NCBI GenBank assembly: GCA_051747785.1
Contig: JBNJGN010000001.1
Location: 1 to 36,760 of the forward strand
From: Patescibacteria group bacterium
Lineage (GTDB): Bacteria > Patescibacteriota > Minisyncoccia > Phycocordibacterales > CSBR16-193
Direction: 5' to 3'
Length of the DNA stretch: 36,760 bases
The notes beneath the pieces are model-generated. The model was given only the letters and a program-made list of their open reading frames with translations, ran no database searches and was not told the origin of the DNA. The first letter of the stretch is position 1. Each line of letters opens with the position of its first letter. A program made the position numbers and the translations under genes. Below, in pieces: positions 3,676-25,752 of this stretch.

Positions 3676-3683
3676 TATAAATA

Positions 3684-4367
3684 ATGACCCATATTGACGT
3701 TCTGACACTAGCCGCACTAGGAGGAGTGATACCCGCTCTCGTATGGCTATGGTTCTGGCTTCGTGAGGACAGGCATCCCGAACCGTGGCAATACATAACC
3801 CTGGTTTTCATAATGGGAATAGTAGCAGTTCCCGTAGTTATACCCTTCCAAAAATCCATTAACTCCTGTGTTTACCTGGCACCTCTATTAACATACTTCT
3901 CTTGGGCTGCCTTGGAAGAGCTCTTCAAATATGCAGCCGCCTATTTCGCCGCACTTAGAAACAAAGTAAACGATGAACCGATAGATCCTGTTATATATAT
4001 GATAGTCGCAGCTTTAGGCTTTGCCGCCATTGAAAATACTCTTTTTTTAACAGAACCTATTTCAAAAGAACTAATCGTTGATAGCGTAGTTATAGCTAAC
4101 TTAAGGTTCGTAGGGGCCACTCTTTTACATGTAGTATGTTCCGCCACCGTAGGATTATTCTTAGCCTTTTCGTTTTACAAGAGCAGAAAGAAAAAAATTC
4201 TTTACTTAATAATAGGATTATTAACCGCCACAGTAATTCACGCTCTTTTCAATCTCATAGTCACATCCGACAGCCAACTTGGCGGCCCTATAACGGCCCT
4301 CCTCTATACATGGACAGGTGCCATGTTCTTAATATTCGCTTTTGAAAAGGTGAAAAAGATACGTTGA
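3684..4367 (+). CDS. PrsW-family intramembrane protease-like protein
   Basis: Polytopic membrane protein carrying AALEELFKY (EExxK) and IHALFNL (HxxxN) in transmembrane segments, as in PrsW/CPBP-like proteases. Starts 8 nt after the valS stop. Confidence 0.65.
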   Translation: MTHIDVLTLAALGGVIPALVWLWFWLREDRHPEPWQYITLVFIMGIVAVPVVIPFQKSINSCVYLAPLLTYFSWAALEELFKYAAAYFAALRNKVNDEPIDPVIYMIVAALGFAAIENTLFLTEPISKELIVDSVVIANLRFVGATLLHVVCSATVGLFLAFSFYKSRKKKILYLIIGLLTATVIHALFNLIVTSDSQLGGPITALLYTWTGAMFLIFAFEKVKKIR

Positions 4368-8290: not shown

Positions 8291-8380
8291 ATTCCTTTAT
8301 TTTTTATAAAATCTGAATCACAGAATTAATGCCACCTTAACACTTAAAAGGCATAAAGGAAACACCGTATTCCATCAAGA

Positions 8381-10054: not shown

Positions 10055-10076
10055 ATCATTTCATAACCGAGAGTAA

Positions 10077-12605: not shown

Positions 12606-12646
12606 AATAAAGAATATTAATTTTACTTATAAAGATTATAACATTC

Positions 12647-12668
12647 GTTTCAAGGAGACCCTTGAAAC
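12647..12668. promoter_or_regulatory. Perfect 9-bp inverted repeat next to an extended -10 (TGTTATAAT; hexamer 12635-12640 on the minus strand) upstream of the TPR-murJ-lepA gene string
   Basis: GTTTCAAGG-AGAC-CCTTGAAAC read directly. No T-run on either side, so it is not a canonical terminator. It sits where a -35 element would be. Confidence 0.35.
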
Positions 12669-12787
12669 TAAAACCGCCCTCTCCTTTCTCTCGAAAGAAC
12701 TTAATTCATTTTATTATCAAAAGAGAGGTAAATCAAGTGTAGATAATAAACATGGCTAAAATAAACAGAATTCAACCAAATTTTCTG

Positions 12788-12861
12788 AGCCTGGGGTGGG
12801 GCACGATCCCACAACCTGCCGATTACAAATCGGCTGCTCTAGCCAATTGAGCTACCCAGGC
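12788..12861 (-). tRNA. tRNA-Thr (UGU)
   Basis: Reverse complement GCCTGGG-TA-GCTC-AATTGGCTA-GAGC-A-GCCGA-TTTGTAA-TCGGC-AGGTT-GTGGG-ATCGTGC-CCCAC-CCCAGGC-T. Anticodon TGT. The T-loop ATCGTGC is atypical. CCA is not encoded. Confidence 0.8.
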
Positions 12862-12925
12862 TTTTTTTAATATCACTTATGAAATATACAACAACAGATA
12901 GTATCTTTGCAACCAAAAAAGATGA

Positions 12926-13339
12926 TCAACCTTCATTATCACTTGCTTTTTCATCTGTTCTTACAGATTTATTTTGTGATGTATTCCAAGATATAGTTCT
13001 TAAATATAAAGAGGTTTCATTTCTATACCTGGCCATATGCCTTTCTCTTAACCTATCCAAAAAACGAAAATACCAAGTACTTAATCTAAACTTCGTCCTC
13101 CTAGAAACTCTATGCATAGGATAGACCACTCTAGTTAAAAAAAACAGAGACACTTTACCTTTAAAAGTAAAAACAAACTCTCTGATAAAGATAAAAAACT
13201 CTCTTAAAACAAGATCATAAGAACGAATGTACCTAGAAAACGCAAAATCCGTGCCTAAGTAAAGCTCCGTTTTCTTATATATCAAGAATAATATAAGTAG
13301 TATCAGAGGAATAAAAAAAAGTCCTTCTGAAATTGACAT
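12926..13339 (-). CDS. Hypothetical basic protein with an N-terminal TM (weak call)
   Basis: ORF starts 11 nt after the tsf stop on the same strand. It is very AT-rich and R/F/L-rich, with no recognisable family. It could be non-coding spacer upstream of tRNA-Thr. Confidence 0.3.
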   Translation of the reverse strand: MSISEGLFFIPLILLILFLIYKKTELYLGTDFAFSRYIRSYDLVLREFFIFIREFVFTFKGKVSLFFLTRVVYPMHRVSRRTKFRLSTWYFRFLDRLRERHMARYRNETSLYLRTISWNTSQNKSVRTDEKASDNEG

Positions 13340-13350
13340 GATAAGTTCAA

Positions 13351-13938
13351 TTATTCACCAACTTCGTAACGCGTGAATCTGGTGACCTCTATTCTCTCAC
13401 CAAACTTTTGAATAGCTTCATCAATGAGGCCGGCTATAGTCTTATCGCCATCTTTTATATACGGCTGCTCCATCAGCGCTATTTCACTTAAATAAGAAGA
13501 GAGCTTACCTTCAACAGCCTTTTCGCGAACCCCGTCAGGCTTATCTGATAGCTCTTTTTCAAAGTCTTCTCTCATAGAACTCTTATCCTCTTCGGGAACT
13601 TCTTCAGCAGAAGTATACTGAGGATTCATCGCCGCTACATGCATCGCTATATTATAAGCGAGATCAATAAATTCTTCATTTTTAGCGACAAAATCTGTCT
13701 CACAGGAAAGCTCCAAAAGAACTCCTACTGTTTTGGTGTTGTGAATATAAGAGACAATTCTTCCAGCCCCCAACGTACGGTCTTTTTTCTTATCTGCTGT
13801 TTCCTTGCTCTTCTTCTGTAAAAGTTCAGCTGCTTTTTTCATGTCCCCACCAGCTTCCTCAAGGGCATTCTTGCACTTCATAACAGAAACTCCTGTTTCA
13901 TCGCGAAGTTTTTTTACATCTTCGGTTGTTGTATCCAT
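13351..13938 (-). CDS. tsf: Translation elongation factor Ts (short form)
   Basis: N-terminal UBA-like block VKKLRDETGVSVMKCKNALEEAGGDMKKAAELL and core TDFVAKNEEF. Located directly downstream of rpsB, which is the conserved order. Confidence 0.88.
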   Translation of the reverse strand: MDTTTEDVKKLRDETGVSVMKCKNALEEAGGDMKKAAELLQKKSKETADKKKDRTLGAGRIVSYIHNTKTVGVLLELSCETDFVAKNEEFIDLAYNIAMHVAAMNPQYTSAEEVPEEDKSSMREDFEKELSDKPDGVREKAVEGKLSSYLSEIALMEQPYIKDGDKTIAGLIDEAIQKFGERIEVTRFTRYEVGE

Positions 13939-13978
13939 AATTAGTTATTATAAATTATTATTTAAGACCAAAAACTTT

Positions 13979-14764
13979 TTATTTTTCCTGATCTTCCGAA
14001 GTAAACTGTTTCATTCCACTTTCATAAGCCTCTACAATCCTGGAAAGGATATGGTCAATGCTTTTTTGAACCGAACTGTTTCCTGGAATGGCCACATCAA
14101 CTTCTGAGAGATCACAGTTTGAGTTTGATAAAGTTACAACTGGAATATTAAGCTGTTTAGCCTCTCTCAGAGCAGTATACTCCTTGCTTATATCAACTAT
14201 AAATATTGCTGACGGTAGATCATTCATTTTTCTGATACCGCCAAAAGTTCTTTTTAAAGTTTCAATTTCTCGATCAAGTAAAAGACGTTCTTTTTTAGTA
14301 TATTTAGCAAAAACTCCCTTTTCATTATCACTCTCCAAATCATCAAGTTTTTGAACCCTTTTACTTATTTGAGAATGATTGGTCAAAGTTCCTCCAACCC
14401 AACGTCCGGAAACATAAGGTTGATCTATCCTTGTAGCGTTGTTCTCTACAGGTTTTCTGGCCTCATTTTTACCGCCCACAAAGAGAACATTCGCCTTTTT
14501 TCTTCCTAGGTCTTCAAAAAATCTCTCTGCCTCCTTTATCTTCTCCTCGGTTTTCTCCAAATCAAATATTTCAACATTATTCTTCACTCCGAAAATATAA
14601 GGGCTCACTGAAGGGTGCCTCCTTGAACGGCTATAAGCATAATGAGCCCCTACTGAAAAAAGCTCTCTTATATTATCATCTTCAATTTTTGAAGTTTTGT
14701 CTGTTTTTTCTTTTACGGCTATCATATAGGTTAGGAGTGTATCAAATTTATCAAAAATGCGCAA
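13979..14764 (-). CDS. rpsB: 30S ribosomal protein S2
   Basis: LFSVGAHYAYSRSRRHPSVSPYIFGVKNNVEIFDLEKT and VLFVGGKNEA ... RWVGGTLTN ... IFIVDISKEYTALREAKQLNIPVV match S2 blocks. The true start may be the internal Met at 14725. Confidence 0.9.
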   Translation of the reverse strand: MRIFDKFDTLLTYMIAVKEKTDKTSKIEDDNIRELFSVGAHYAYSRSRRHPSVSPYIFGVKNNVEIFDLEKTEEKIKEAERFFEDLGRKKANVLFVGGKNEARKPVENNATRIDQPYVSGRWVGGTLTNHSQISKRVQKLDDLESDNEKGVFAKYTKKERLLLDREIETLKRTFGGIRKMNDLPSAIFIVDISKEYTALREAKQLNIPVVTLSNSNCDLSEVDVAIPGNSSVQKSIDHILSRIVEAYESGMKQFTSEDQEK

Positions 14765-14812
14765 TAAAATACAACCTATTTAATAGGAACTGCGTAGGAA
14801 AATCTAAAAAAA

Positions 14813-16345
14813 CTATATCTCAAATACCAGAAGATCCCACCAGTGGGAATCTCCTCTCTTAGAAATAACAGGGTTATTAAGAACATCTCCGTATGGAGTA
14901 TAAACTTTACTTTCAGCCATATTTCCAGCAAACACAATATGAACACCGCTCCAACGAGCCTGCACTCTTAACATAGTATCCAGCCGCTGTTCCAACTGAT
15001 GAGAATTATCAAACCAAGAAAGAGAAACCATATTCACTATAAAAGGAACCTTTTCTTTTCTCTTCATTACCAAACTCTTTACTCCGTAAGGCGACACGTT
15101 CTCAAAACAAAAAAGAACAGCTGGACTACCGTCAGGTAAATTAGACTGGCTATCAGATCCCGGAACATAATTCATCACCTCAGAAAGAACATTAAGAGCG
15201 TCATCTTGTCCCAAAAATGACACTGATCTAATAAAAAGATAAGACAAAAACTCTCCCTGTGGAACAAGATACTGCTTATCAAATCTATATAGAGAGTTAG
15301 TGTCATTATTATACAAAAAACCTTTTAATACACTTTCATCACCCAGAGACACTTTTCCACTGCCGATAAGCTGTACTGAGCTAGTGGCAAACTCTTTACT
15401 TAACCAAGACTTAGCCTCTTGATAGTCAGAAAAACCATTAAGAAAACGAGTGTCCTCCGGAAGTAAAATATGATCTGCAGAAGTCTCCCCTGCCAGTACT
15501 ACACCTTTCCGCATTAATTCATGCTGTTTACTGCCCATATCAGGATTAGAACGAAATTCCCTATCAAAATAAGTCTGCAAAACTGCGATCCTTAACCCTT
15601 TAGGCTCGACATTAGGACTTTCCTTAAAATAAAAAAGACCGTAACCTAAAACGGCCAGTGCTAAAATAAAGACAGTTATAAAAGATAATGAAATATTCTT
15701 AAACCTATTTATATACCAAATAATTATTACAACGGTAACAGCAGCCAAAGATAGGATATAAACTCCGCCCAAAGCAGATAAATGAAAAAGGGGTTCATAA
15801 TGAGCAAGATGATATCCCAAATAAGAAAAGCTAAAACGAGCATTCAAGAAAGCCCCCTCCCCTATAGTAAAAAGGGAAAAAAAGATTGATCCCGCTATTT
15901 CACACACCAACCAAAAAACAGGAACGAGTACTAAATATAAAGGTTTTTTAGCCTGAAAAAAACACCAAACAAAAAAACCACACACCATTCCAGCCAATCC
16001 CAAAAAAGCCGCAGAAAGAAACCAACAGATACCAATAAAAGAAAATTGCAATATGCTGGAAAAATCTTCCAAGTAACTAATGGGAAAAACAGACCACGCC
16101 CAAAACACACTCAGAGATCCCGAAACAGTCCAAGATATAAAACCCAAAATGGCCGCCTTACCTCTAGATGCAACATTTGCCCATAACCAAAATAAAAGAA
16201 ATAGCCCTAAAACATAAATCCACCACAGTTGGGGGATTACAAAACCAATCCCTAAAAGAAAACCAGCAAAGGCACCGGAAAGATATCTGTGAGTTATAAG
16301 TTTTTCCCTTATTTGCTTTTTTAGTTCATCTCTCTCTTTCAACAC
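14813..16345 (-). CDS. lnt: Apolipoprotein N-acyltransferase-like protein (Lnt family)
   Basis: About 8 TM helices followed by a CN-hydrolase domain with the Lnt-type triad context: ILLPED (Glu), FDKQYLVPQGEFL (Lys, the K-x-LVPFGEY pattern) and VLFCFEN (Cys). Confidence 0.65.
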   Translation of the reverse strand: MLKERDELKKQIREKLITHRYLSGAFAGFLLGIGFVIPQLWWIYVLGLFLLFWLWANVASRGKAAILGFISWTVSGSLSVFWAWSVFPISYLEDFSSILQFSFIGICWFLSAAFLGLAGMVCGFFVWCFFQAKKPLYLVLVPVFWLVCEIAGSIFFSLFTIGEGAFLNARFSFSYLGYHLAHYEPLFHLSALGGVYILSLAAVTVVIIIWYINRFKNISLSFITVFILALAVLGYGLFYFKESPNVEPKGLRIAVLQTYFDREFRSNPDMGSKQHELMRKGVVLAGETSADHILLPEDTRFLNGFSDYQEAKSWLSKEFATSSVQLIGSGKVSLGDESVLKGFLYNNDTNSLYRFDKQYLVPQGEFLSYLFIRSVSFLGQDDALNVLSEVMNYVPGSDSQSNLPDGSPAVLFCFENVSPYGVKSLVMKRKEKVPFIVNMVSLSWFDNSHQLEQRLDTMLRVQARWSGVHIVFAGNMAESKVYTPYGDVLNNPVISKRGDSHWWDLLVFEI

Positions 16346-16401
16346 CTGAATATAATAAACTCTAATTAAAAATAAAAAAAGGGAAAATTAAAAAATTGGA
16401 A

Positions 16402-17361
16402 CTATTCTTCCTCAATACATATTTCCTTTTTTGAAATAGCGACAACTGTTTTTGTAAGTAAAATAACAATTATGATATTAACTATTACAAAAAACAGCCA
16501 GGATAGATACTTGAACACCTCAATGTCAGTTTCGTGGAACATTAAAATACTCGCAATAGTAATAGCAGTCATAGGAAAGGAGTAAGCCCACCAAGATAGG
16601 TAATACTTTATCCTTCCGAACATTTTTATTTGCGCAAATAACATTATTACCAAAAATAAAGCAATGTAATATAGTATTTTAGAGAACTCACTTACATCTC
16701 CGGTTAATTTAACAAAAGAGATAAATCCTATCGCCGGCGGAGCGATCAAAATAAAAAGCGTCGGTAACAGTTTTTGTGGCAAGGGGCTATGAAAGATTAT
16801 GCGATTAAAAAATATAATAAAAAGTGCCACCCAGAAGAAAAATCCTATGCTATAAAAAAACCAAGATATTTCATTAGAAAAATGAGCCACACCAGCCACC
16901 GGAACTAAAATATTACCAACAGCCGGAATAAACCAAGCAGGATTCATATGTCTAACCTCAAATTTTGTGTGCTGTATCCATATGGAAATGATCTTAATAG
17001 TAAAAATAAGATGAATAGCAGATCCTGCGATCCATAAATACTTTGAAATAGGAACGTTTATCCCCAAAAAAGCTATACTTAATAAAAGTAAACTGATTGA
17101 AAAGGTTGGGAAAAAACTCAATTTGACAGGGTCATTGAATTCCACCCTAACTTCTTCTTTAAACCTAAATATCTTTAGGGCGTAAACAACGGTAATAACA
17201 AGAAAAATCAAGGATGTTATTATCAAAAGATACCAGCTAATATCAAACGGCATACCCAAAACCTCTTCCGCTCTCTGGAAAGCAATCGTAAACCCAGCCA
17301 TTCCCAAAATCACCGAAAAAAATGATACTGGGAAAAATTTAATTCTGCATTCTTTTTTCAT
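16402..17361 (-). CDS. TehA/SLAC1-family anion channel/transporter
   Basis: 10-TM protein of 319 aa. FPVSFFSVILGMAGFTIAF near the N-terminus and MNPAWFIPAVGNILVP mid-protein are typical of the TehA/Mae1 (C4-dicarboxylate/tellurite-resistance) family. Confidence 0.7.
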   Translation of the reverse strand: MKKECRIKFFPVSFFSVILGMAGFTIAFQRAEEVLGMPFDISWYLLIITSLIFLVITVVYALKIFRFKEEVRVEFNDPVKLSFFPTFSISLLLLSIAFLGINVPISKYLWIAGSAIHLIFTIKIISIWIQHTKFEVRHMNPAWFIPAVGNILVPVAGVAHFSNEISWFFYSIGFFFWVALFIIFFNRIIFHSPLPQKLLPTLFILIAPPAIGFISFVKLTGDVSEFSKILYYIALFLVIMLFAQIKMFGRIKYYLSWWAYSFPMTAITIASILMFHETDIEVFKYLSWLFFVIVNIIIVILLTKTVVAISKKEICIEEE

Positions 17362-17554
17362 GATCTTTGTATTATATAAATAAAATACCTATATCTTAAA
17401 TATCACATCCAAACTTTCTAAAATGCAACCTGACAAGAGCTCGAATAGTGGTCATTCAAGCAAAGATTAGCAAATACTTTACACCACAGTTTAAGTAAAA
17501 TTTATCTCGCACACAACGATCATTCTTTCCATAAATATCTTGTCTCTCCACGAT

Positions 17555-17761
17555 CTATTCCGAATATCTTTGAATAACATCTTCGAGTAATTGTTTTGCT
17601 TTCGGATCTTTAAATTCATCCAAAGCTCGTTCTGCTTCTCTAATATAAAAATCTCTTATATTATTTCCCTCTAGATCTTCACAAGGATCGTTAATATGTT
17701 CAGTTAAGAACAGTGCTAATTCCATATCTGTCGCTTTCTCTTTTTTTTCAAAATTTTCCAT
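17555..17761 (-). CDS. Hypothetical small acidic protein (68 aa)
   Basis: ORF only. Helical and acidic, with no recognised family. Confidence 0.4.
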   Translation of the reverse strand: MENFEKKEKATDMELALFLTEHINDPCEDLEGNNIRDFYIREAERALDEFKDPKAKQLLEDVIQRYSE

Positions 17762-17905
17762 ATTTATGTATGTATTGCTTCACGTAATGTAAATGCTTAT
17801 ACAAAGTGTACCGCAAAAGTAAAGTTTTTTCAGGAACATTTTATAAAAATGATGGCTGACCCTATTTTCAATATCCTCAAATGCTCCGCATTCTCGTCTT
17901 TGTTT

Positions 17906-17993
<88 letters not shown>

Positions 17994-18062
17994 TTATGCT
18001 TTTTGAGTGTCAGGTTATTGTAAGAGAAAATTAAAAAGTTATCAACCAATAAAGACTTTTTA

Positions 18063-18965
18063 CTACTGCATTTTCTGTCTCAGGGCCTTAACCCTCTCTT
18101 CAACCGGCGGATGAGTCATGAAAAGCTTATCCATAAAACCCATCTTTGTACCCTTTCCTCCGAAAGGGTTAGAGATATACATATGAGCCATAGCGTGATT
18201 CGCTTTTTTAAGAGGCTCAGAGACACCGGATATTTTCTCTAGAGCACTGGCCAATCCTTCTGAGTAACGTGTCATGAGTGCTCCACTGGCATCAGCCAAG
18301 AACTCTCTTTTCCTTGAAATAGCCAGCTTTATTATAACCGCCACAATAGGGGCCAATATAGCTAAAGCGATACCTAAAATGATCATTATTAACTGAGCTC
18401 TTCCATCACGGTCTCCCCCCACTCCTCCGAATATCGTCATTCTCAAAAAGAAATCGGAAAGGAGTGTAACAAAGCCGACCAACACAACAACAGTGGTCAT
18501 AAGTAAAATATCACGATTCTTTATATGCGATAACTCATGAGCTATCACGCCTTCCAATTCGTTTCTGTCTAATATTTTTAAAAGACCTGTGGTTACGGCC
18601 ACAACCGAGTTCTCAGGATTCCTTCCGGTAGCAAAAGCGTTAGGCGCCTGATCTTCTATCACATACAACTTAGGCATGGGAAGTCCACTGGCTATGGAAA
18701 GATTCTCCGTAACATTCCAAAGCTCACGAAACTCTTCTCTTTTAACTGGCCTGGCTCCACTCATCTTCAACACTATCCTGTCTGAATACCAATAACTTAT
18801 TACGTTCATCAGAATACTTATAGCGACAGCAATAATCAAAATGATCTGACTATCAAATATCCAACTGAAAGCCCAACCCAGTAAAATGACAACGACAAAA
18901 AAGCCGAGCATCAAAAACCATGTTCTTCTCACATTGGAATCAACCTGTGTATAAGCAGTAGACAT
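18063..18965 (-). CDS. htpX: Zinc metalloprotease HtpX (M48 family)
   Basis: HELSHIKNRD (HExxH), the downstream REFLADASGA motif, and 4 TM segments in the typical HtpX arrangement. Confidence 0.88.
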   Translation of the reverse strand: MSTAYTQVDSNVRRTWFLMLGFFVVVILLGWAFSWIFDSQIILIIAVAISILMNVISYWYSDRIVLKMSGARPVKREEFRELWNVTENLSIASGLPMPKLYVIEDQAPNAFATGRNPENSVVAVTTGLLKILDRNELEGVIAHELSHIKNRDILLMTTVVVLVGFVTLLSDFFLRMTIFGGVGGDRDGRAQLIMIILGIALAILAPIVAVIIKLAISRKREFLADASGALMTRYSEGLASALEKISGVSEPLKKANHAMAHMYISNPFGGKGTKMGFMDKLFMTHPPVEERVKALRQKMQ

Positions 18966-19027
18966 AAGATATGTTAAAGATAAGTAATTATACCTATCAG
19001 AGAATAACTAAGACTGATTTCGCCTTA

Positions 19028-19600
19028 CTAGAAACTTACCTCCACAGGTTCACGGGCCTCCTCCTCTTCCAGTTCAAAGTACTCTCTGTCCTCAAACTTG
19101 AAAATACTGGCAATTATGTTGTAGGGGAAAGATTCTATTCTGATATTAAGATCCCGTACATTACCATTATAGAATCTTCTAGCTGCTTGGATTTTGTTTT
19201 CAGTGTCGGAAAGCTCTCTTTGAAGTTCTAAAAAATTCTCATTGGCCTTTAGATCTGGATAGTTCTCCGCAACGGCAAAAAGAGACTTTAGAGCATCAGA
19301 GAGCATATTCTCTGACTGTTCCATGCTCTTTACATCTCCCGACTTTTCAGAGTTCATCGCCTCGGTACGCTTCTTTGTAACCTCTTCAAAAACACCCCTT
19401 TCATGTTCTGCGTAACCCTGAACGGTATTAACCAACTGAGGAATAAGGTCATACCGTCTCTTTAGCTGAACGTCTATGTCAGCCCAAGCTTCTTTAGTTC
19501 GGTTAACAAGTTTTACAAAGCCGTTATAGGCGATAATAACCCATACCACCAAAACAAGTATTAATCCTAAAAGAATATATATCAAAATATTCAAATCCAT
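19028..19600 (-). CDS. lemA: LemA family protein
   Basis: N-terminal TM then YNGFVKLVNRTKEAWADIDVQLKRRYDLIPQLVNTVQGYAEHERGVFEEVTKKR, the LemA signature region. Sits directly upstream of htpX. Confidence 0.85.
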   Translation of the reverse strand: MDLNILIYILLGLILVLVVWVIIAYNGFVKLVNRTKEAWADIDVQLKRRYDLIPQLVNTVQGYAEHERGVFEEVTKKRTEAMNSEKSGDVKSMEQSENMLSDALKSLFAVAENYPDLKANENFLELQRELSDTENKIQAARRFYNGNVRDLNIRIESFPYNIIASIFKFEDREYFELEEEEAREPVEVSF

Positions 19601-19673
19601 GTTTATATTTAATTATTATAAGTAAGTAAACTTATTTTACCACAACAGACATCACTAATAAAGACAGCGCACT

Positions 19674-20618
19674 CTATATCTCATCAATCACTCTTCTAGC
19701 TGCTCGCTCCACCTCTTTTTCAGAAACCCTCTTCGGAAGATCGTCAGAACTGTGATAAACAGACATAAGATCGTCTAAATCCCCTGCCACTACTTTTGTT
19801 TTTTTAGCAACCTTCTCCAATGACTTTATACCAAAACCAAGTTTTAAAAGTTCAAGATCGTCAATAAATTCGGTATTTGAATGACCCAAAGAATCTAGAA
19901 CAAATATCTTTTTTGAACCAAGCAAAATATCGGAGTGCTTATCTTCAAAACGCCTATATCCATAACACCAGTAAACAGGCTCGTCATAGGAAATCTCTTC
20001 ATTTCCCGAAAAAACAAAAAGTGCTCTTTCTAAGATATCGGGGCAACTCAATATCATGTATAGCGCCATCGCGGTACCACTCGCATTATCAATAGATCCA
20101 TTCTCAATAGAATCATAATGAGAAAAAATTATCACTTCTGGATTTTTTGTATTACCTACAAGAATATTCCGACATTCATGAGCCTCTCTTTTAACTTCCA
20201 CCCTTCCAGAAACCTTTTTAGCCTTGGCTATCTTTAAAATATCACCCCTCCTTACAGCCACAGATGGTGCAAAATAAAAATTACACTTAGAAATTACTCT
20301 ACAAGCAGGATTGAAATTGATATTCGGCTTATACAGAAAATCACACGAATCAGCAAGAGAACTTACAAGATGGTGGTTATCTTTTATCTCCCCACTAATA
20401 AAAGATGTGGATTTACAAGGTATTTCTTTTTCATCAACCCGAAGTTCACACTTCTTAACCCTTGGAAGATCCACCTTGAAGCCCTCTTTTTTGTAAGAAG
20501 TAGCACTCTTTTTCAAAATGTCTTCTATATATAAAGCGGTTCTTGTCTCAACCTCAAACTGACGTTCCCCCATTGCGCTCAGGTCTCTAATGACTTTTTT
20601 TACAAAACCTTTTTTCAT
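19674..20618 (-). CDS. M28-family metallopeptidase-like protein (cytoplasmic; no signal peptide seen)
   Basis: Co-catalytic zinc ligand pattern in order: IIFSHYDS (His/Asp), IDNASGTA (Asp), FSGNEE (Glu-Glu), VLDSLG (Asp), YHSSDD (His). Confidence 0.6.
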   Translation of the reverse strand: MKKGFVKKVIRDLSAMGERQFEVETRTALYIEDILKKSATSYKKEGFKVDLPRVKKCELRVDEKEIPCKSTSFISGEIKDNHHLVSSLADSCDFLYKPNINFNPACRVISKCNFYFAPSVAVRRGDILKIAKAKKVSGRVEVKREAHECRNILVGNTKNPEVIIFSHYDSIENGSIDNASGTAMALYMILSCPDILERALFVFSGNEEISYDEPVYWCYGYRRFEDKHSDILLGSKKIFVLDSLGHSNTEFIDDLELLKLGFGIKSLEKVAKKTKVVAGDLDDLMSVYHSSDDLPKRVSEKEVERAARRVIDEI

Positions 20619-20671
20619 TTAAATCTATCTTATATTATATACTAACTCTATCAAATATAAATTTAAAGAAA

Positions 20672-20700
20672 AGCCGTCCATCTCAAACGAATGAACGGCT
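20672..20700 (-). terminator. Rho-independent terminator after the 265-aa orphan gene
   Basis: Minus strand AGCCGTTCAT-TCGTTTGAG-ATGGACGGCT (10 bp including one G-U), followed by TTTTCTTTAAATTT. Confidence 0.6.
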
Positions 20701-20729
20701 CTGTTAGGAGGTTTCTGTTTAGAGATTTG

Positions 20730-20753
20730 GATGTTTATCTTTTGATAAACATC
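20730..20753. repeat. Perfect 10-bp inverted repeat GATGTTTATC-TTTT-GATAAACATC just after the orphan gene stop
   Basis: Read directly, 16 nt downstream of the stop at 20769. It could be a second terminator stem or a protein binding site. Confidence 0.6.
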
Positions 20754-20768
20754 TATCAATAAAATTCA

Positions 20769-21566
20769 TTACAAGTCTTCCTCAAGTCTGGCAAAAGGCT
20801 GCTCCTTCCAAGGAACTTCTTTTTTGTTATAGTTTACAAAATTAACACTTGGGTAATAGTCAAGTTCTTTTCGCCAGGACATCTTAACAATAACCGGGGC
20901 ACACCCGAACAGTTCTTTAACCTCTTTGAAAGCAGGTTCAAAAACATTATTCGTAAAGCGATTGAGTTGCCAGTCAGATCCATCACCATGGTAGTCCTCA
21001 AAAAGAACACCATGAGAAATTGCCAACGACAGAAAATGAGTATAGTAAAACACGGCCCTACCTCCCAGTTCCTTGGCTTTTCCGGAAAAATCCCAGGTAA
21101 GAGCTTCAGGGTAAAAAGACAGAAGTTGCTTTCGGTGAAATTCTTTGAGACTACCTCCGCCGTTATTACAAACAATCTCGGAAAGCTTCTTCCCTTCGTT
21201 CTTTTCACAACAAGCTATTCTCTTTTTTTCAAGAACAACTCCACCATTCTTGCCCATACGCATAGCAAATACGGGGTTAATAAGTGAAATTTTATCTGAA
21301 GAAGCAGATACCATGAAATCTTCGCTATACCCCATCCAAAGAGGAGTAAGACCAACTCTTTCTGCCATCTTAACAAAAACAGCATCTTCGTACCTGAAGG
21401 TTGGAATGTTGCGTGCCAAAATGGCATAAGGGACTCCATTAAAAATAGACGGGAAGCTAACTCCTGAATCGATCCACCAATCTTCTACAGATTTTTTTAC
21501 ACCCTTTCCCCGAGAATCAATAACATCCTTAGCCTCATCAATCTCAGTATAAAAGCCATCAGACAT
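20769..21566 (-). CDS. Hypothetical protein, 265 aa, no recognised family
   Basis: Longest ORF in the region. It has a perfect SD (AAGGAGGT, 5 nt before the ATG) and its own terminators downstream. No TM or signal peptide. No motif I can assign (WWIDSGVSFPSIF, GGRAVFYYTHFLSLAISHGVLFEDYHGDGSDW). Confidence 0.7.
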   Translation of the reverse strand: MSDGFYTEIDEAKDVIDSRGKGVKKSVEDWWIDSGVSFPSIFNGVPYAILARNIPTFRYEDAVFVKMAERVGLTPLWMGYSEDFMVSASSDKISLINPVFAMRMGKNGGVVLEKKRIACCEKNEGKKLSEIVCNNGGGSLKEFHRKQLLSFYPEALTWDFSGKAKELGGRAVFYYTHFLSLAISHGVLFEDYHGDGSDWQLNRFTNNVFEPAFKEVKELFGCAPVIVKMSWRKELDYYPSVNFVNYNKKEVPWKEQPFARLEEDL

Positions 21567-21720
21567 GGAAACCTCCTTTTTCGAAAATCAAAGAACAAAA
21601 TATGTTCAGCCCACTTGGACGAACAGTACAGCTCCATAGGTTAAACCGTAACCTAAGGTGTGACCACCATACTAATGGACACACCCAGAGTCACGATGAG
21701 TAACCCGAGCACTTAAATTA
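21567..21720 (-). promoter_or_regulatory. GC-enriched, hairpin-rich 5' leader / candidate cis-regulatory RNA upstream of the 265-aa gene
   Basis: Minus-strand RNA contains GGGTGTG-[TCCAT-TAGT-ATGG-TGGT]-CACACCT and TAGGTTA-CGGTT-TAACCTA (7 bp). It also contains TGTTC-GTCCAAGTGGGCT-GAACA, then the AAGGAGG SD. It is visibly more G+C-rich than the flanking intergenic DNA. No Rfam family recognised by eye. Confidence 0.35.
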
Positions 21721-21748
21721 AAAGACCTCCCTTGGGAGGGAGGTCTTT
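21721..21748. terminator. Strong 12-bp hairpin AAAGACCTCCCT-TGGG-AGGGAGGTCTTT (bidirectional terminator-like)
   Basis: Perfect inverted repeat read directly. T-runs follow on both strands (plus TTGCGTTTTATTTTTT; minus TTTTAATTT). Located 197 nt downstream of the kinase stop and 154 nt upstream of the orphan gene start. Confidence 0.7.
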
Positions 21749-21776
21749 TTGCGTTTTATTTTTTAAAGTTCTTATT

Positions 21777-21866
21777 TCATCTTATAGCAAAACCCCCCCC
21801 CCTTCTCTGAAGGATAAATAGCATGTAGACAATAAACCATGCCTGGGTTTTCGCTTTGTTCTCCAT
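21777..21866 (-). CDS. Candidate leaderless 29-codon ORF MENKAKTQAWFIVYMLFILQRRGGGFAIR (leader peptide or small membrane peptide)
   Basis: The A of the ATG is the 7th nt after the TATAAT hexamer (21878-21873), i.e. at the expected transcription start. It has a hydrophobic core, and the G10 tract encodes RGGG. The stop TGA at 21779-21777 lies 28 nt before the hairpin. The ORF is short, so coding status is unproven. Confidence 0.3.
   Translation of the reverse strand: MENKAKTQAWFIVYMLFILQRRGGGFAIR
21793..21802. repeat. Homopolymeric C10 (G10 on the minus strand)
   Basis: Counted directly: aacccccccccctt. It is the only long G/C homopolymer I saw in this AT-rich window. Confidence 0.95.
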
Positions 21867-21872
21867 ATTCGG

Positions 21873-21900
21873 ATTATAACCACCATTTCGAAACTGTCAA
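21873..21900 (-). promoter_or_regulatory. Near-consensus sigma70-type promoter TTGACA-16nt-TATAAT
   Basis: Minus strand TTGACA (21900-21895), spacer GTTTCGAAATGGTGGT, TATAAT (21878-21873). It lies 45 nt downstream of the kinase stop and points toward the small ORF, hairpin and orphan gene. Confidence 0.6.
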
Positions 21901-21945
21901 TAGGTTATACACACTTTTTTAAGAGAGTCTCAAATCTTCATGAAC

Positions 21946-23571
21946 CTATGAAGTCATCGGAAGTTCAATAGTAAATACACTCCCCTTACCTTCGCCCTCT
22001 GATTCCACTTTAACAGTACCACCGTGGTCCTCAGCTATCTTTTTTGCCAGATAGATCCCTAACCCACTACCGTTGGTATTCACCTTATCAGCCCCTTTGG
22101 CTCTTTTGAACTTGGCAAACAAAGAAGATATCTCTTTAGGATCTATACCTACGCCGGTATCGGAGATCTTTATATGCATCCTTCCTTTATTCGGTTTTGA
22201 AAAACGAACGCCTATCTTTCCTTCAGGGGTGTACTTAATGGCGTTATCAATAAGGTTACCGATGACTTGCTCAATTTTGTTCTCATCAACCTTGGCATTA
22301 CACTCTTCATCTATACTCTCAAAGTTCATTTCCAGTCCTTTCTCCTCCGCCGAAGGCCTGTATTCCTCCACTATATTCTTCACTATATGGCGCATATCTT
22401 TCTTTTGAAATTCGTAGCTCATTCTTCCTTGCTCTATTCTTGAAACATTAAGAAAGTCATTAACGATCTTTATTAAGCTCTTAGTAGAATGATCCACAAC
22501 ATTCAACGGCTCCTTTAATCCTTCGTTAACCTCTCCATAATCACCTTCAAGCATCATTGAAACGTACCCCCTGATAGAAGTTAAAGGAGAACGGATCTGA
22601 TGAGTCGCCAAAGAAAGAAATTCCGTTTTAGCCTTATCAAATTCTCTTAGACGCCTGTTAGCCTTTTTTATTTTTTTCGCCAACTCTTCAATCTTTTCTC
22701 TTTGCTTAACTTCTTTCGTTACACTGCGAATAATAAAAATTCCAAAAATGATAGTTAAAATAAGTAATAAAGAACTTGCAACTTGTTCTTGAAAACTATC
22801 AGAAACTAATACTCGTATAACCAAAAAAACCCATAATACTAGGATGAATATCTCTGTAGTTATAATTTTAATGTTAAATAATTCATATCTAAAAATTGCA
22901 ACAGAAAAATAGAATACCATTACTAAAGTAAAAACAGGCCCTAGCCAGTAATAAGTAAATATTCCTAGGGTAGGTAAAAGTAAATTGGTAATTAAACCAC
23001 CAATTACAGTAATAAAAATTCCAATTAATATATTTTTACCTTGTTGTTTTCTAATTTTAGATATCGACTTTTTCAAAAAAAATAAAAGAATAACACAAGA
23101 GATTGTAAAACAAGCCACCATAAAAAAACTATAAAAAAAATAAAGGGGGCCGAATTCTAAAATTCTTGCAACAAGAACTCCGTCTACAAATTTAAAAATC
23201 TTAAAACCAGAAACGACGAAATTAGTAAGAAAAATTATAAAACCCCAAAATAAAATAAAAACAATGTAAATAATATTTAGTATTTTCTTTGTTTTTTTTG
23301 TTACTTCATAACTAAAAAATAAATTATAAAATAGAGCTGAAACAGGTAATGTAAAAGCTGCAAAATAAGAGATCTTAGAAAACAAATAAATCATTTCTTT
23401 GCTTGGAAGTAAAGAATATGAAGCCAGAGAAGTAGACCATACAAAAACACCAAAAGTTATTAAGATAAAATAAAACATTTTTATATCTCTTTCTCCGTGC
23501 ACAAGCGTAATTGCCCCAATAAAAAAATTCACTAACGCAACACCTAGCAAAATAACTGAGAACAAAGGCAT
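21946..23571 (-). CDS. Sensor histidine kinase with a ~9-10-TM membrane sensor domain; no cognate response regulator in the window
   Basis: The first ~290 aa are almost entirely hydrophobic helices. Then come a coiled coil, H-box FLSLATHQIRSPLTSIRGY, N-box IGNLIDNAIKYT, G1 ISDTGVGI and G2 GSGLGIYLAKKIAEDHGG. No PAS, HAMP or receiver domain seen. Confidence 0.88.
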   Translation of the reverse strand: MPLFSVILLGVALVNFFIGAITLVHGERDIKMFYFILITFGVFVWSTSLASYSLLPSKEMIYLFSKISYFAAFTLPVSALFYNLFFSYEVTKKTKKILNIIYIVFILFWGFIIFLTNFVVSGFKIFKFVDGVLVARILEFGPLYFFYSFFMVACFTISCVILLFFLKKSISKIRKQQGKNILIGIFITVIGGLITNLLLPTLGIFTYYWLGPVFTLVMVFYFSVAIFRYELFNIKIITTEIFILVLWVFLVIRVLVSDSFQEQVASSLLLILTIIFGIFIIRSVTKEVKQREKIEELAKKIKKANRRLREFDKAKTEFLSLATHQIRSPLTSIRGYVSMMLEGDYGEVNEGLKEPLNVVDHSTKSLIKIVNDFLNVSRIEQGRMSYEFQKKDMRHIVKNIVEEYRPSAEEKGLEMNFESIDEECNAKVDENKIEQVIGNLIDNAIKYTPEGKIGVRFSKPNKGRMHIKISDTGVGIDPKEISSLFAKFKRAKGADKVNTNGSGLGIYLAKKIAEDHGGTVKVESEGEGKGSVFTIELPMTS

Positions 23572-23582
23572 AATTCTTTATG

Positions 23583-24341
23583 TTATAAAAAAAATCTTAT
23601 ACGAATTAAATCCAATAAATTTAAATTTTTTTTAACAAAGTAAATATCTTTCTCTTTTTTACTAAAAATTAGAGAACTATTAAATAAACGAGAATAAAAA
23701 TTGACTATTTCTTCGTTTAAGAAATACAAAGGTATAACTGGATCATTTGGATTAAAGAAATTTCTTAAAGGATCATTAGATTTCTGAGGAGAATACTTTA
23801 GTTTATATTTTTTTATTAATTTTAAAGGAAACCCTAGCTTATTAAATTTTTTAAAAGCATATAATTTTAATGCTCCATAACCACCATAATAACCGTTATC
23901 CTTACCATATTCACTTATAACCAAAAACATACCTAGAGGGATTAAATGTCTAGGAAACTTGTCTATACCTAAAACATTAGGACGAGATATTAGACGCCCT
24001 ATTTCAACAATTTTTTCTCTTGAAATTTTTTTAAATTCTTCTGGCTCTTCAAAATCAAAATAGTCTTTTTCTATAGGAAGATGATTACTATCAATCATTC
24101 TGGCTGTACCTATAATTTTATTATTACATTTTACTATAAAATAGTGGCATTCATTATTTTCATCATGTTGATCTCTATCTTCTGCTAGTTCTTTCATTTC
24201 AAGGCTATTGGGAATGTAGCCTTTTTCTTTTACATATACATCATACCTTAATCTAAACATCTCCGAAAATTCTTTTTTAGATGAAGGCATGCCAAAATCT
24301 ATTTTTTTATTTTTCCACACAAAACTTTTTTTAACATCCAT
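23583..24341 (-). CDS. GNAT-superfamily N-acyltransferase of the autoinducer-synthase-like branch (FeeM N-acyl amino acid synthase / OlsB / LuxI-like)
   Basis: Pattern FRLRYDVYVKEKGYI ... AEDRDQHDE ... HYFIVKCNNKIIGTARMI ... KIVEIGRLISRP parallels the LuxI/FeeM/OlsB core (R-x-x-V-F/Y, acidic E-x-D-x-x-D, G-x-x-R-L/M, E-x-S/G-R-L/F). 252 aa. Assigned by motif recognition only. Confidence 0.55.
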   Translation of the reverse strand: MDVKKSFVWKNKKIDFGMPSSKKEFSEMFRLRYDVYVKEKGYIPNSLEMKELAEDRDQHDENNECHYFIVKCNNKIIGTARMIDSNHLPIEKDYFDFEEPEEFKKISREKIVEIGRLISRPNVLGIDKFPRHLIPLGMFLVISEYGKDNGYYGGYGALKLYAFKKFNKLGFPLKLIKKYKLKYSPQKSNDPLRNFFNPNDPVIPLYFLNEEIVNFYSRLFNSSLIFSKKEKDIYFVKKNLNLLDLIRIRFFL

Positions 24342-24352
24342 ATTAAAAAGAT

Positions 24353-25039
24353 TTACTTAAAAAGTATTTTAACTCCTTCATAAAGACCCGACACCTTTTC
24401 TCTTAAATACTCCCTGGCTTCCGTATAACTTTCATCTTCATTAAAAAGATCTTTGGGTATATAAAGAACCTCTCCGAAAGAAACAAAAACCTTTCTTCTG
24501 AATAATCTTTTTGAACCTAGACGAACTGAGCACGGCAGTATGGGAGCACCTGATCTTTCTTGAATAGCTACAGCTCCTTTTTTAAATTCACTTACCCCTT
24601 CTTTAAAAAAAATTCCCCCTTCGGGGAACATCAATATAGTATTTTTATTTTTGAGAGCTTCTACAAGAGGGTCTATTTTTCCATCAAAAGAATCTGTGTC
24701 GGGAATGGTTATAACATCGTAGATATAATAAATAAACTTGGTTATCTTAAGCTTTGACAGAACCGCCAAGAAAGAGTTGCCCTTAAACTCTTTCTTGGCA
24801 AAGGGTCTTATAGGAAAAAGACGGAGCAAAACAGTGAAAGGAAGTGATACAAAAATTATCCAGGGATCAAAAGGAGTTTTGTGATTGGAAACTACTACCA
24901 TTGGTTTTTTTACATCCTTAAAATTTTCATCTTCATAATAAGTTTGTATAGAAAGAAAAATTTTTGAAACAATAAAAACTACGAAATAACTAAAAAACCA
25001 AACAGATAAAGCAACACTCTTCTTTATCTTCCTTCGCAT
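24353..25039 (-). CDS. PlsC/LPLAT-family acyltransferase (1-acyl-sn-glycerol-3-phosphate acyltransferase-like; OlsA/HdtS-like)
   Basis: N-terminal TM, motif I VVSNHKTPFDP (NHxxxxD), motif III LMFPEGG and motif IV GAPILPCSV. Confidence 0.8.
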   Translation of the reverse strand: MRRKIKKSVALSVWFFSYFVVFIVSKIFLSIQTYYEDENFKDVKKPMVVVSNHKTPFDPWIIFVSLPFTVLLRLFPIRPFAKKEFKGNSFLAVLSKLKITKFIYYIYDVITIPDTDSFDGKIDPLVEALKNKNTILMFPEGGIFFKEGVSEFKKGAVAIQERSGAPILPCSVRLGSKRLFRRKVFVSFGEVLYIPKDLFNEDESYTEAREYLREKVSGLYEGVKILFK

Positions 25040-25138
25040 AAGATCATATTAAAAATGAATAATTCTTTCATATGCATAAATACTGGTTTCTTTTTTGGAT
25101 ATTTTATAAATTATATACCCTCTTTTTTCAAGGGCAGT

Positions 25139-25154
25139 AGACAGTTACCTGTCT
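25139..25154. promoter_or_regulatory. Palindrome AGACA-GTTACC-TGTCT upstream of the acyltransferase-kinase operon
   Basis: Read directly. It has the same half-sites and the same 6-nt spacing as AGACA-TTTCTA-TGTCT inside the 1214-1241 palindrome. It lies about 100 nt upstream of the 25039 start and about 23 nt upstream of a TATATAAT box (25110-25117, minus). Confidence 0.35.
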
Positions 25155-25238
25155 TGATCCATATCAAAAAGGTAAATGTACCAAATCAAAGCCCCGCTCT
25201 TTTCAATAAAAACGAGGCTTAACCAAAGGAGACCATCC

Positions 25239-25610
25239 TCATAAACTACCCCCGTTCTTATTATCTTCTTCTAGAAATTCTCTGCCTTTTTCAATAAGCT
25301 GTAAAGCAAAGTTCCTCTCTCCTCTGAACCTATACCTAAGTTCAGGATAATGTTGAAGTTGACTTGAATCGGCTATTGCCTTGAGCTGTCTAAGACATTC
25401 TTCCAGGGCATCTATTCTCTCGATAACCTTTTCTCTATTTATCGCCCCCTTTTCTTCAAGGTAAAGATTTTCTTCTTCTTCTGATAAAACCCTTCCCCTG
25501 AAAGCCGACGGATTAAGCCCTTGCCAAACTGAATGCCGATTTTCCTTTTCAAATTTATCTAACAACTCCGCAACACCTCTTTCAGTAAAGTCTTTTTTCT
25601 CAAGCAACAT
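25239..25610 (-). CDS. Hypothetical helical protein, 123 aa
   Basis: ORF with a strong SD (AAGGAGGT, 8 nt before the ATG). Charged and helical, with no recognised family. Confidence 0.6.
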   Translation of the reverse strand: MLLEKKDFTERGVAELLDKFEKENRHSVWQGLNPSAFRGRVLSEEEENLYLEEKGAINREKVIERIDALEECLRQLKAIADSSQLQHYPELRYRFRGERNFALQLIEKGREFLEEDNKNGGSL

Positions 25611-25696
25611 TTTTATTACCTCCTTTTAAAGTGCTCTTCTTTAAGGATATACTTTATTTGAAGTCAAATCAAGCCTTTTAGGCTTTTTAGACCAAA

Positions 25697-25724
25697 CAAA
25701 AAGACCTCCTTGGGAGGTCTTTTT
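25697..25724 (-). terminator. Rho-independent terminator of groEL
   Basis: AAAAAGACCTCC-TTG-GGAGGTCTTTTT. On the minus strand it is followed by TTTTTGTTTGG. 29 nt downstream of the groEL stop. Confidence 0.75.
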
Positions 25725-25752
25725 GTATATCTTTAGGTTAAATGCAGTTCCA

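Follow-up and report, generated by a model that had tools for sequence, protein, structure and literature searches.

We analysed a 36.8-kb stretch of DNA from a member of the Patescibacteria, or Candidate Phyla Radiation (CPR); this stretch, at its full length of 36,760 nucleotides, is henceforth referred to as the window. It contains a three-gene operon on the minus strand that encodes a PlsC/LPLAT-family acyltransferase (AT, 228 aa, 24353-25039), an N-acyl synthase of the LuxI/FeeM/OlsB branch (SYN, 252 aa, 23583-24341) and a membrane-sensor histidine kinase (HK, 541 aa, 21946-23571), each identified by an open reading frame (ORF) call and Pfam matches (PF01553 for AT). The synthase and the kinase are linked in every informative locus that we recovered, and the operon lies on an inserted island. 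We tentatively favour the explanation that the cassette is a horizontally inserted, self-contained lipid-signal circuit, in which an N-acyl lipid synthase and a tailoring acyltransferase would be encoded with their cognate intramembrane receptor kinase. The spacers between AT and SYN (24342-24352) and between SYN and HK (23572-23582) are 11 nt each, and a 199-nt stretch (25040-25238, minus strand) lies upstream. An initial annotation had described three minus-strand genes with these spacers and this upstream gap, had assigned the three families and had read the genes as an operon. The coordinates proved exact in our ORF check, and the assignments and the operon reading are borne out by Pfam matches and by conserved tight spacing.

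We searched for relatives of SYN with an exhaustive profile Hidden Markov Model (HMM) comparison over 1.84 billion cluster representatives. This resulted in 310 clusters (50% identity) at E ≤ 1e-3, of which 157 remain at E ≤ 1e-10 and 86 at E ≤ 1e-30, and nearly all members are ~250 aa long. The exhaustive search was needed to reveal the family: word-indexed homolog searches returned few SYN relatives (four with the single sequence and eight with a profile), and an alignment of close SYN homologs detected no related loci when searched against genome contigs and metagenome contigs. All module loci discussed below were reached from SYN relatives except L096 and L097, which were reached from the kinase side; both of the closest HK homologs that we looked up on long contigs carry the module.

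Co-location in relatives, on which the initial annotation had made its reading depend, is found. In 12 of 12 informative SYN loci a HisKA_7TM kinase adjoins SYN or is one gene away, the intervening gene being an S-adenosylmethionine (SAM) methyltransferase (MT). A PlsC-type AT is present in six of the eight loci with visible upstream DNA, and MT in seven of the 12. Across the 12 contexts SYN identity ranges from 19 to 68%, and the module genes overlap or are separated by gaps of 1-30 nt. The order found in the window (AT-SYN-HK) recurs in L095 at only ~30% SYN identity, where a C-terminal fragment of AT (49% identity to the window AT) lies directly upstream of SYN. MT joins the module in L001 (AT-MT-SYN-HK), L004 (SYN-MT-HK), L092/93 (MT-SYN-HK), L009/10 (MMPL, AT, CYTH and NUDIX genes, then SYN-MT-HK), L097 (AT-hydrolase-MT-SYN-HK) and L096 (GCA_007117035.1, SKHG01000054.1, 7990-13221), where MT-HK is convergent with SYN-AT and a TraB-like protein is also part of the module. 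L005/6 and L008 have SYN-HK. In L007 (JGI 3300071356, 1.17-Mb contig, 10001-19044) a HisC/CobD-like pyridoxal phosphate (PLP) enzyme is followed by SYN-HK-HK-ABC-HK-HK, and L011 has a 7TM-only protein, MT, a SYN::aminotransferase fusion and a 7TM-GAF-HK. The same partners also occur as fused domains: besides the SYN-aminotransferase fusion, there are three independent SYN-methyltransferase fusions (MT::SYN once and SYN::MT twice), and two of the SYN fusions sit in NCBI assemblies on ~23-kb contigs. To judge from these gene contents, the AT-SYN-HK trio represents the smallest form of a larger modular cassette that can also include a methyltransferase, an alpha/beta hydrolase, a HisC/CobD-like PLP enzyme and extra kinase paralogs.

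The module has different flanks in different loci: groEL, rplJL, a class II aminoacyl-tRNA synthetase gene of the AsnRS/AspRS type (PF00152) or, where it lies between rplE and rpsH, genes of a ribosomal-protein operon. These varied flanks rule out a single inherited ancestral neighbourhood. The recurrence of this gene set on unrelated contigs shows that the grouping exceeds chance. We also compared the pairwise identities of the parts. SYN identity correlates with sensor-domain identity (r = 0.69) and not with kinase-core identity (r = -0.32), a soft statistic because it draws on 15 non-independent pairs from six loci. For the window and L096 the kinase cores are 63% identical, whereas the sensors and the SYN proteins are each 27% identical.

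Several of these loci have features of their own. The L096 module is inserted inside a conserved ribosomal-protein operon, between rplE (L5) and rpsH (S8). In L007, four paralogous ~540-aa kinases follow one SYN, with an ABC ATPase interrupting the array; the second paralog reads SLQLRTPL for SHQLRTPL and has therefore lost the phospho-acceptor histidine, which makes it a possible pseudokinase. Upstream, the same locus encodes a 1199-aa LCAT/lipase-like protein with PKD domains. The AT-to-SYN interval of L009 (4974-9802) encodes a CyaB-type class IV adenylate cyclase (TIGR00318, above cutoff), a NUDIX hydrolase and a 209-aa protein with only a faint LNS2-type Pfam match, and a divergent MMPL transporter gene lies upstream; these neighbours hint at ties to nucleotide signalling and lipid export. 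In L097 an alpha/beta hydrolase gene (7707-8519) separates AT and MT, and an IS200-type Y1 transposase gene (3638-4333) is located 2.6 kb upstream of the module. We considered the PLP partner as a CqsA/Spt/AONS-like enzyme of an alpha-hydroxyketone or ceramide-like pathway and rejected this identification, as it scores as HisC/CobD-type.

HK, the constant partner of SYN, combines a sensor domain (residues 1-289, 22704-23571, minus strand), defined by PF16927, hydropathy and an AlphaFold model, with a transmitter (21946-22703, minus strand) that Pfam and motif positions resolve into a coiled linker, HisKA (residues 314-382) and HATPase_c (residues 429-540). The Pfam matches are PF16927 HisKA_7TM (3.6e-13, residues 8-234), PF00512 (6.7e-16) and PF02518 (2.2e-28). 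His324 serves as the phospho-acceptor, and HK has intact N, G1 and G2 boxes (NLIDNAIKYT, DTGVGI and GSGLGIYL). Hydropathy and the positive-inside rule place nine transmembrane (TM) helices in the sensor, N-out/C-in, with K/R-rich loops at residues 87-96 and 167-179. The AlphaFold model (50 homologs, predicted local distance difference test score (pLDDT) 91.6) has the same nine helices. The description of the sensor in the initial annotation as consisting entirely of membrane helices thus holds, whereas its count of about ten is corrected to nine. The sole extracytoplasmic element is a ~20-residue beta-hairpin (residues 120-140). As there is no sizeable extracytoplasmic domain, the sensing of any ligand has to take place within or at the membrane. 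N15, W45, TN (195-196) and WLGP (209-212) are the conserved residues of the sensor.

The sensor has no match in NCBIfam and matches only PF16927 in Pfam. Foldseek against the Protein Data Bank (PDB) detected no solved homolog and returned weak, non-significant matches to 7TM bundles of the G-protein-coupled receptor (GPCR) type (E ~4e-3, TM-score ~0.5). HisKA_7TM kinases with the architecture of HK are abundant in Patescibacteria (more than 1,859 clusters at 90% identity, E ≤ 1e-20), and the HK family takes in Taylorbacteria and Paceibacterota proteins at ~40% full-length identity. Because the protein ends at HATPase_c without a receiver domain, HK is not a hybrid kinase and in this differs from LuxN, which the initial annotation had cited as a 9-TM kinase that binds an acyl signal. 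We looked for receiver domains with Pfam on window ORFs of at least 90 aa and with phmmer on six-frame ORFs of at least 50 aa. The phmmer queries were four receiver sequences, which found receivers in unrelated loci as a positive control. Neither method detected a receiver domain in the window, in agreement with the earlier statement that it encodes no response regulator.

We assessed the family membership of SYN at the level of motifs, profiles and predicted fold. The motifs that had been quoted for SYN and AT are all present. In SYN these are FRLRYDVYVKEKGY at residue 29, EDRDQHDE at 54, IIGTARM at 76 and VEIGRLI at 112. SYN matches PF21926 FeeM (1.6e-9, 38.2 bits against a cutoff of 27, covering model positions 2-92 of 158), PF13444 Acetyltransf_5 (5.6e-9, 37.1 bits, gathering threshold 22.4) and PF00765 Autoind_synth (1.5e-7, 31.6 bits, gathering threshold 24), whereas the general GNAT model PF00583 reaches only 0.06. 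Among 70 family members, FeeM matches all 70 (best 1.5e-15), Acetyltransf_5 60 and Autoind_synth 57. The NCBIfam equivalogs are far away. The best match is TIGR03694, the exosortase-linked acyltransferase (2.3e-9), with 37 bits against a cutoff of 112; N-acyl-homoserine lactone (AHL) synthase equivalogs, TraI among them, score 20.8 (cutoff 250) and 15.4 bits (cutoff 292), and the OlsB (NF052554) and OlsF equivalogs score 14.9 (cutoff 350) and 12.6 bits (cutoff 620), respectively.

The family profile matches only AHL synthases in the PDB (RpaI at 1.8e-6, BjaI at 3.5e-6, EsaI, LasI, MesI and TofI). The AlphaFold model of SYN (pLDDT 82) has BjaI, MesI and RpaI as its top Foldseek matches at TM-score ~0.5, with ordinary GNATs close behind. 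The FeeM structure 2G0B is absent from the top 50 Foldseek matches and from the profile matches to the PDB at E ≤ 1. The possibility, raised in the initial annotation, that SYN would match ordinary acetyltransferases best is not what we found: its profile and fold matches are led by AHL synthases and the FeeM model. Hydropathy predicts no TM segment, so the protein should be soluble.

Seven positions are invariant in 70 family members (R32, D57, D60, R81, R116, P130 and P172), and E113 is near-invariant. In the profile comparison with the PDB, the R, D-x-x-D, R and E-x-x-R positions align with conserved AHL-synthase residues. The conserved residues of the LuxI family, in LuxI-family numbering, are R24, F28, W34, D45, D48, R68, E97-101 and R100-104. 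In SYN, Y36 and Y42 stand in place of F28 and W34, an aromatic replacement of these two positions that has been noted in CPR relatives (PMC7567580). The catalytic and SAM-site residues do not discriminate AHL synthases, because they are common to related non-AHL enzymes. The active-site glutamate is E95 in FeeM, and the corresponding E103 of Nas354 is essential (PMC4897644). E113 of SYN, within VEIGRLI, is probably equivalent to FeeM E95, as judged from its alignment to the AHL-synthase glutamate rather than directly to FeeM. By these profile comparisons, SYN is a distinct branch of the LuxI/FeeM/OlsB clade.

AT matches PF01553 (3e-14) and has an N-terminal TM helix and the catalytic dyad H53-x4-D58. 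Its motifs are NHKTPFD at residue 52, FPEGG at 138 and PILP at 166. All NCBIfam PlsC and OlsF equivalogs score far under their cutoffs, including that of Escherichia coli PlsC (17.4 bits, cutoff 501), and TIGR00530 reaches 48.6 bits (cutoff 103). The only PDB sequence match is Thermotoga maritima PlsC (5KYM), whose FPEGTRS aligns with FPEGGIF. Motif III of AT is thus FPEGG, with Gly-Ile (window) or Lys-Ile (L001) in place of the Thr-Arg of the canonical FPEGTR. The arginine of PlsC motif III contacts the acceptor phosphate; given its absence, a non-phospholipid acceptor is plausible for AT. Window and L001 proteins in the same gene positions are 62% (AT), 57% (SYN) and 49% (HK) identical. A terminator-like hairpin with a T-run (TTCCCCGAAGGGGGAATTTTTTTT) lies within the AT gene over the codons of motif III (FPEGGIFF; 24612-24629, minus strand). 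It is probably a coding coincidence and could attenuate transcription within the operon.

The operon is not in an ancestral housekeeping context. We compared the window with 80 groEL loci of relatives. In many of these (e.g., L024, L012, L029 and L048), groES-groEL is directly followed by lemA and an M48 (HtpX-type) peptidase gene, whereas in the window groEL and lemA are ~6.1 kb apart (19601-25752). The insert contains ORF123, AT, SYN, HK, a promoter with a small ORF, ORF265 and an M28-like protein, and none of the 80 loci contains homologs of these genes. GC content is 25% in SYN and 33% in AT and HK, compared with 38% in the window and 43% in groEL. A hairpin motif (AAAGACCTCC...GGAGGTCTTT) occurs twice in the 36.8-kb window, against zero expected occurrences. 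The first copy, AAAGACCTCC-TTG-GGAGGTCTTT (25700-25722, bidirectional), follows directly after the groEL stop and forms the left bracket; the second, with a 13-bp stem (21721-21748), follows HK and the small ORF and forms the right bracket. Together they enclose a 3.97-kb cassette of ORF123, AT, SYN, HK and the small ORF, resembling a terminator duplicated at an insertion site. From the groEL-lemA contiguity in relatives, the low GC content and the hairpin pair, we infer that the trio lies on an inserted accessory island. The initial annotation had placed the trio in a housekeeping setting; this is accurate for the rest of the window and not for the trio itself. Other direct repeats around the island look like AT-rich chance matches and were set aside.

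Synthase genes located beside kinase genes are known from several signalling systems. In LuxM/LuxN, AinS/AinR, CqsA/CqsS and LqsA/LqsS, the synthase gene adjoins that of a kinase with 6-9 TM helices that binds a hydrophobic acyl signal in its membrane domain. The module resembles LuxM/LuxN or CqsA/CqsS pairs in its presumed function and is not a member of those families: LuxN/CqsS-type kinases are hybrids with a receiver that feeds LuxU/LuxO, whereas HK ends at the HATPase domain, and the synthases LuxM/AinS and the PLP-dependent CqsA are unrelated to SYN. The PLP partner found with SYN relatives is HisC/CobD-like and not CqsA/AONS-like. FeeM-type synthases provide the best Pfam model for SYN, and their catalytic-type glutamate is conserved in it. 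These enzymes are described as genetically linked to other systems rather than stand-alone (PMC4897644, citing Craig et al. 2011). SYN resembles the exosortase-linked TIGR03694 as well, whereas the window contains no exosortase or PEP-CTERM genes.

The closest precedent is a census by Bernard et al. 2020 (mSystems, PMC7567580, Table S4), which reported a LuxI homolog adjoining a sensor kinase in 18 CPR genomes of the Giovannoni-, Kerfeld-, Nomura-, Portnoy-, Ryan-, Sacchari-, Taylor-, Uhr-, Vogel- and Yonathbacteria and WWE3. Two of the Taylorbacteria also have an HdtS/PlsC homolog three genes from the pair, and several of the kinases beside LuxI homologs match a CqsS-sensory-domain HMM (PMC7567580). 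The authors proposed the pairs as candidate complete quorum-sensing systems; the work was a BLAST/HMM census without experiments (PMC7567580). The statement in the initial annotation that no described system couples the three parts was therefore too strong. As in the window, these pairs consist of a ~250-aa LuxI-like GNAT directly beside a polytopic histidine kinase (sometimes two kinases), and to judge from their size, Pfam matches and context they probably belong to the SYN family. The census does not describe the SAM methyltransferase, the hydrolase, the HisC/CobD-like PLP enzyme, the fusions, the 9-TM architecture, the island insertions or the synthase-sensor co-variation (PMC7567580). We found no experimental work on the synthase-kinase pairing in the literature searched. 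As far as our searches show, the full modular architecture, the fusions, a 9-TM sensor of GPCR-like bundle type without a solved homolog, a non-hybrid kinase without a linked regulator, the island-type insertions and the co-variation of synthase and sensor are apparently new.

In the signal circuit that we favour, SYN would N-acylate a small amine or amino acid, taking the fatty acyl group from acyl-CoA or an acyl-carrier thioester, and the membrane-anchored AT would add a second acyl group to this product or exchange one on it. In relatives, the SAM methyltransferase, alpha/beta hydrolase or HisC/CobD-like PLP enzyme may tailor the product or supply its head group. The amphiphilic product would partition into the membrane and be bound inside the nine-helix bundle of the co-translated HK, and binding would alter both the autophosphorylation of His324 and the signal passed to a response regulator whose gene lies elsewhere. 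The gene identities, the tightness of the operon, the linkage of SYN to HK, the linkage and fusions of AT and MT, the island context and the all-membrane sensor are direct observations; the chemistry of the product, its role as the kinase ligand and the downstream regulator are our predictions. Three lines of evidence favour a ligand-receptor relation over mere co-regulation. SYN is always accompanied by the kinase and not always by AT; one synthase can have up to four kinase paralogs (L007) or a stand-alone 7TM protein (L011) beside it; and SYN co-varies with the sensor domain rather than with the kinase core.

The initial annotation had framed the choice as one between an aminolipid pathway with a membrane sensor and a signal synthase with its receptor. 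This frame is sound, and the data lean towards a synthase with a receptor. The aminolipid alternative, which we regard as possible and on balance doubtful, is that SYN is the counterpart of OlsB/GlsB, AT of OlsA/GlsA and the methyltransferase of relatives of OlsG. N-acylation with a hydroxy-fatty acid and subsequent O-acylation would yield an acyloxyacyl aminolipid, a bulk phosphorus-free lipid, and the kinase would read the state of the membrane or envelope. OlsB/OlsA, GlsB/GlsA and OlsF likewise pair a same-branch GNAT N-acyltransferase with a PlsC-family O-acyltransferase (both as domains in OlsF), often in one operon, and OlsG is known to act as an optional N-methyltransferase of ornithine lipid (PMC12971839). 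As in OlsBA, a PlsC-family O-acyltransferase is adjacent in the window, with AT located 11 nt upstream of SYN. SYN and 60 of the 70 family members pass the gathering threshold of PF13444, the OlsB-type model; the loss of the motif III arginine is compatible with a non-phospholipid acceptor; and an MMPL lipid transporter (L009) and an LCAT/lipase-like protein (L007) are encoded near the module. Set against this, the OlsB and OlsF equivalogs are missed by a wide margin, and SYN is constantly accompanied by the kinase (12 of 12 loci) and not by AT (six of eight), unlike in OlsBA and GlsBA. Known ols and gls loci have no kinase component, and the terms "histidine kinase", "two-component" and "Patescibacteria" do not occur in the review of these lipids (PMC12971839). 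SYN co-varies with the sensor domain and not with the kinase core, location on a patchy low-GC island that 80 related groEL loci lack would be unusual for a core membrane-lipid pathway, and up to four kinase paralogs per synthase are hard to explain by membrane homeostasis.

True AHL quorum sensing, in which SYN would be a LuxI-type enzyme using SAM and acyl-CoA or acyl carrier protein and the 9-TM kinase would replace LuxR (compare LuxM/LuxN), appears improbable. The only significant PDB profile matches are AHL synthases, led by the CoA-dependent RpaI and BjaI, which are also among the top Foldseek matches, and FeeM is in neither set. PF00765 scores above gathering, R32, D57, D60, R81, E113 and R116 align with AHL-synthase residues, JGI names one relative "N-acyl-L-homoserine lactone synthetase" and Bernard et al. 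2020 classed relatives likewise. The AHL equivalogs, however, reach only 15-21 bits against cutoffs of 250-292, FeeM ranks above Autoind_synth in Pfam for SYN and for all 70 family members, and the Foldseek TM-score is only ~0.5, with ordinary GNATs close behind. The N-terminal motifs of AHL synthases are also common to OlsB-type enzymes. Methyltransferase, HisC/CobD-like PLP enzyme and PlsC-type AT, as partners or fused domains, suggest a tailored amine or amino-acid head group and not a lactone, and no LuxR, autoinducer-binding or GerE domain was detected by Pfam in any window ORF. It is very improbable that the genes form no functional unit, with AT the housekeeping PlsC of a lipid-scavenging CPR cell, HK one of an abundant class of kinases and their adjacency incidental. 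HisKA_7TM kinases are indeed numerous in Patescibacteria (the more than 1,859 clusters above), and PlsC homologs are widespread in CPR (PMC7567580). This explanation does not account for recurrence in 12 independent contexts with different flanks, for spacing of 1-30 nt or overlaps, for the domain fusions or for the 62% (AT), 57% (SYN) and 49% (HK) identity with L001 proteins in the same positions. On this comparative evidence, chance adjacency is excluded.

Several observations weigh against the signal-circuit explanation that we favour. CPR bacteria are generally not known to synthesize fatty acids, which leaves no obvious source for the acyl donor. The window cassette encodes no exporter. 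The transmitter of HK is complete, as in a classical two-component system, whereas a cognate response regulator was not found: no receiver domain was detected in the window or in ~15 flanking stretches, L001-L011, L096 and L097 among them. AT is not universal: L007 and L011 lack it, and L096 and L097 have ATs of another sub-branch. The softness of the co-variation statistic also counts here. Finally, the combination of N-acyltransferase and PlsC-type O-acyltransferase is a textbook sign of structural aminolipid synthesis (OlsBA, GlsBA; PMC12971839) and not of signalling.

The cassette and the wider insert contain further genes. ORF123 (123 aa, 25239-25610, minus strand) is within the hairpin-bracketed cassette and matches no Pfam or NCBIfam family. 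Outside the cassette but in the 6.1-kb insert are ORF265 (20769-21566), which has no family match, and the M28-peptidase-like protein (19674-20618). The 199-nt stretch between ORF123 and AT contains terminator-like hairpins for the preceding gene (for example at 25136-25116) and only weak sigma-70-like matches, such as a promoter-like site matching 9 of 12 positions at 25071-25043; these are no more than candidate sites for the operon promoter. A perfect promoter is found downstream of the operon, starting 46 nt past the HK stop (TTGACA-16-TATAAT, 12 of 12 sigma-70 consensus positions, 21900-21873, minus strand). It precedes a hydrophobic 29-aa ORF (MENKAKTQAWFIVYMLFILQRRGGGFAIR, 21866-21777, minus strand) that contains a G10 run (21793-21802) and is followed by a terminator with a 13-bp stem. 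Because the ATG is six nt past the -10 hexamer, the transcript would be leaderless. This ORF is possibly a small membrane peptide or a small RNA of the cassette, perhaps one that modulates the kinase or resembles a toxin peptide, and slippage could occur at the G10 run. Rfam gave no hit at threshold in the region downstream of HK; Phe_leader scored 26.7 bits against a gathering threshold of 55, which probably reflects just the terminator.

The remaining window genes are housekeeping genes and encode a class I aminoacyl-tRNA synthetase, LepA, MurJ, EF-Ts, S2, GroES/EL, RNase J, HtrA and four tRNAs. The window GroEL is at most 68% identical to any in 185,579 species-representative genomes, and its best matches are all from Patescibacteria, of the Paceibacteria/Parcubacteria type. 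At this identity the host is a CPR bacterium without a close sequenced relative. A 510-aa protein encoded at 14813-16345 (minus strand) matches only LNT_N, the N-terminal membrane domain of apolipoprotein N-acyltransferase (1e-6). No nitrilase-type catalytic domain was detected in it, which makes it another lipid-related oddity of this reduced genome.

Patescibacteria are a huge and mostly uncultivated radiation of tiny episymbionts with minimal metabolism. As far as we know, they have no fatty-acid synthesis. A broader proposal, which we put forward as speculative and rather unlikely, is that the module is a CPR-specific mobile device for cell-cell or cell-host communication that combines a new class of autoinducer with a new class of receptor. 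The autoinducer would be a tailored N-acyl amine or amino-acid lipid, possibly made from host-scavenged acyl chains, and the receptor a non-hybrid histidine kinase fused to a GPCR-like 9-TM bundle. Joint diversification of synthase and sensor would give rise to private "dialects" and thereby account for the arrays of kinase paralogs. The modularity of the cassette (AT, MT, hydrolase and PLP enzyme), its mobility, with insertion next to groESL and even within a ribosomal-protein operon, and the co-variation of synthase and sensor are what would be expected of a diversifying signal-receptor system. The module is compact and cloneable and could give the first chemically defined CPR signal, or a CPR-specific lipid, and with it the corresponding receptor. 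Should the product turn out to be a structural aminolipid, the view of CPR membranes as purely scavenged would need to be revised.

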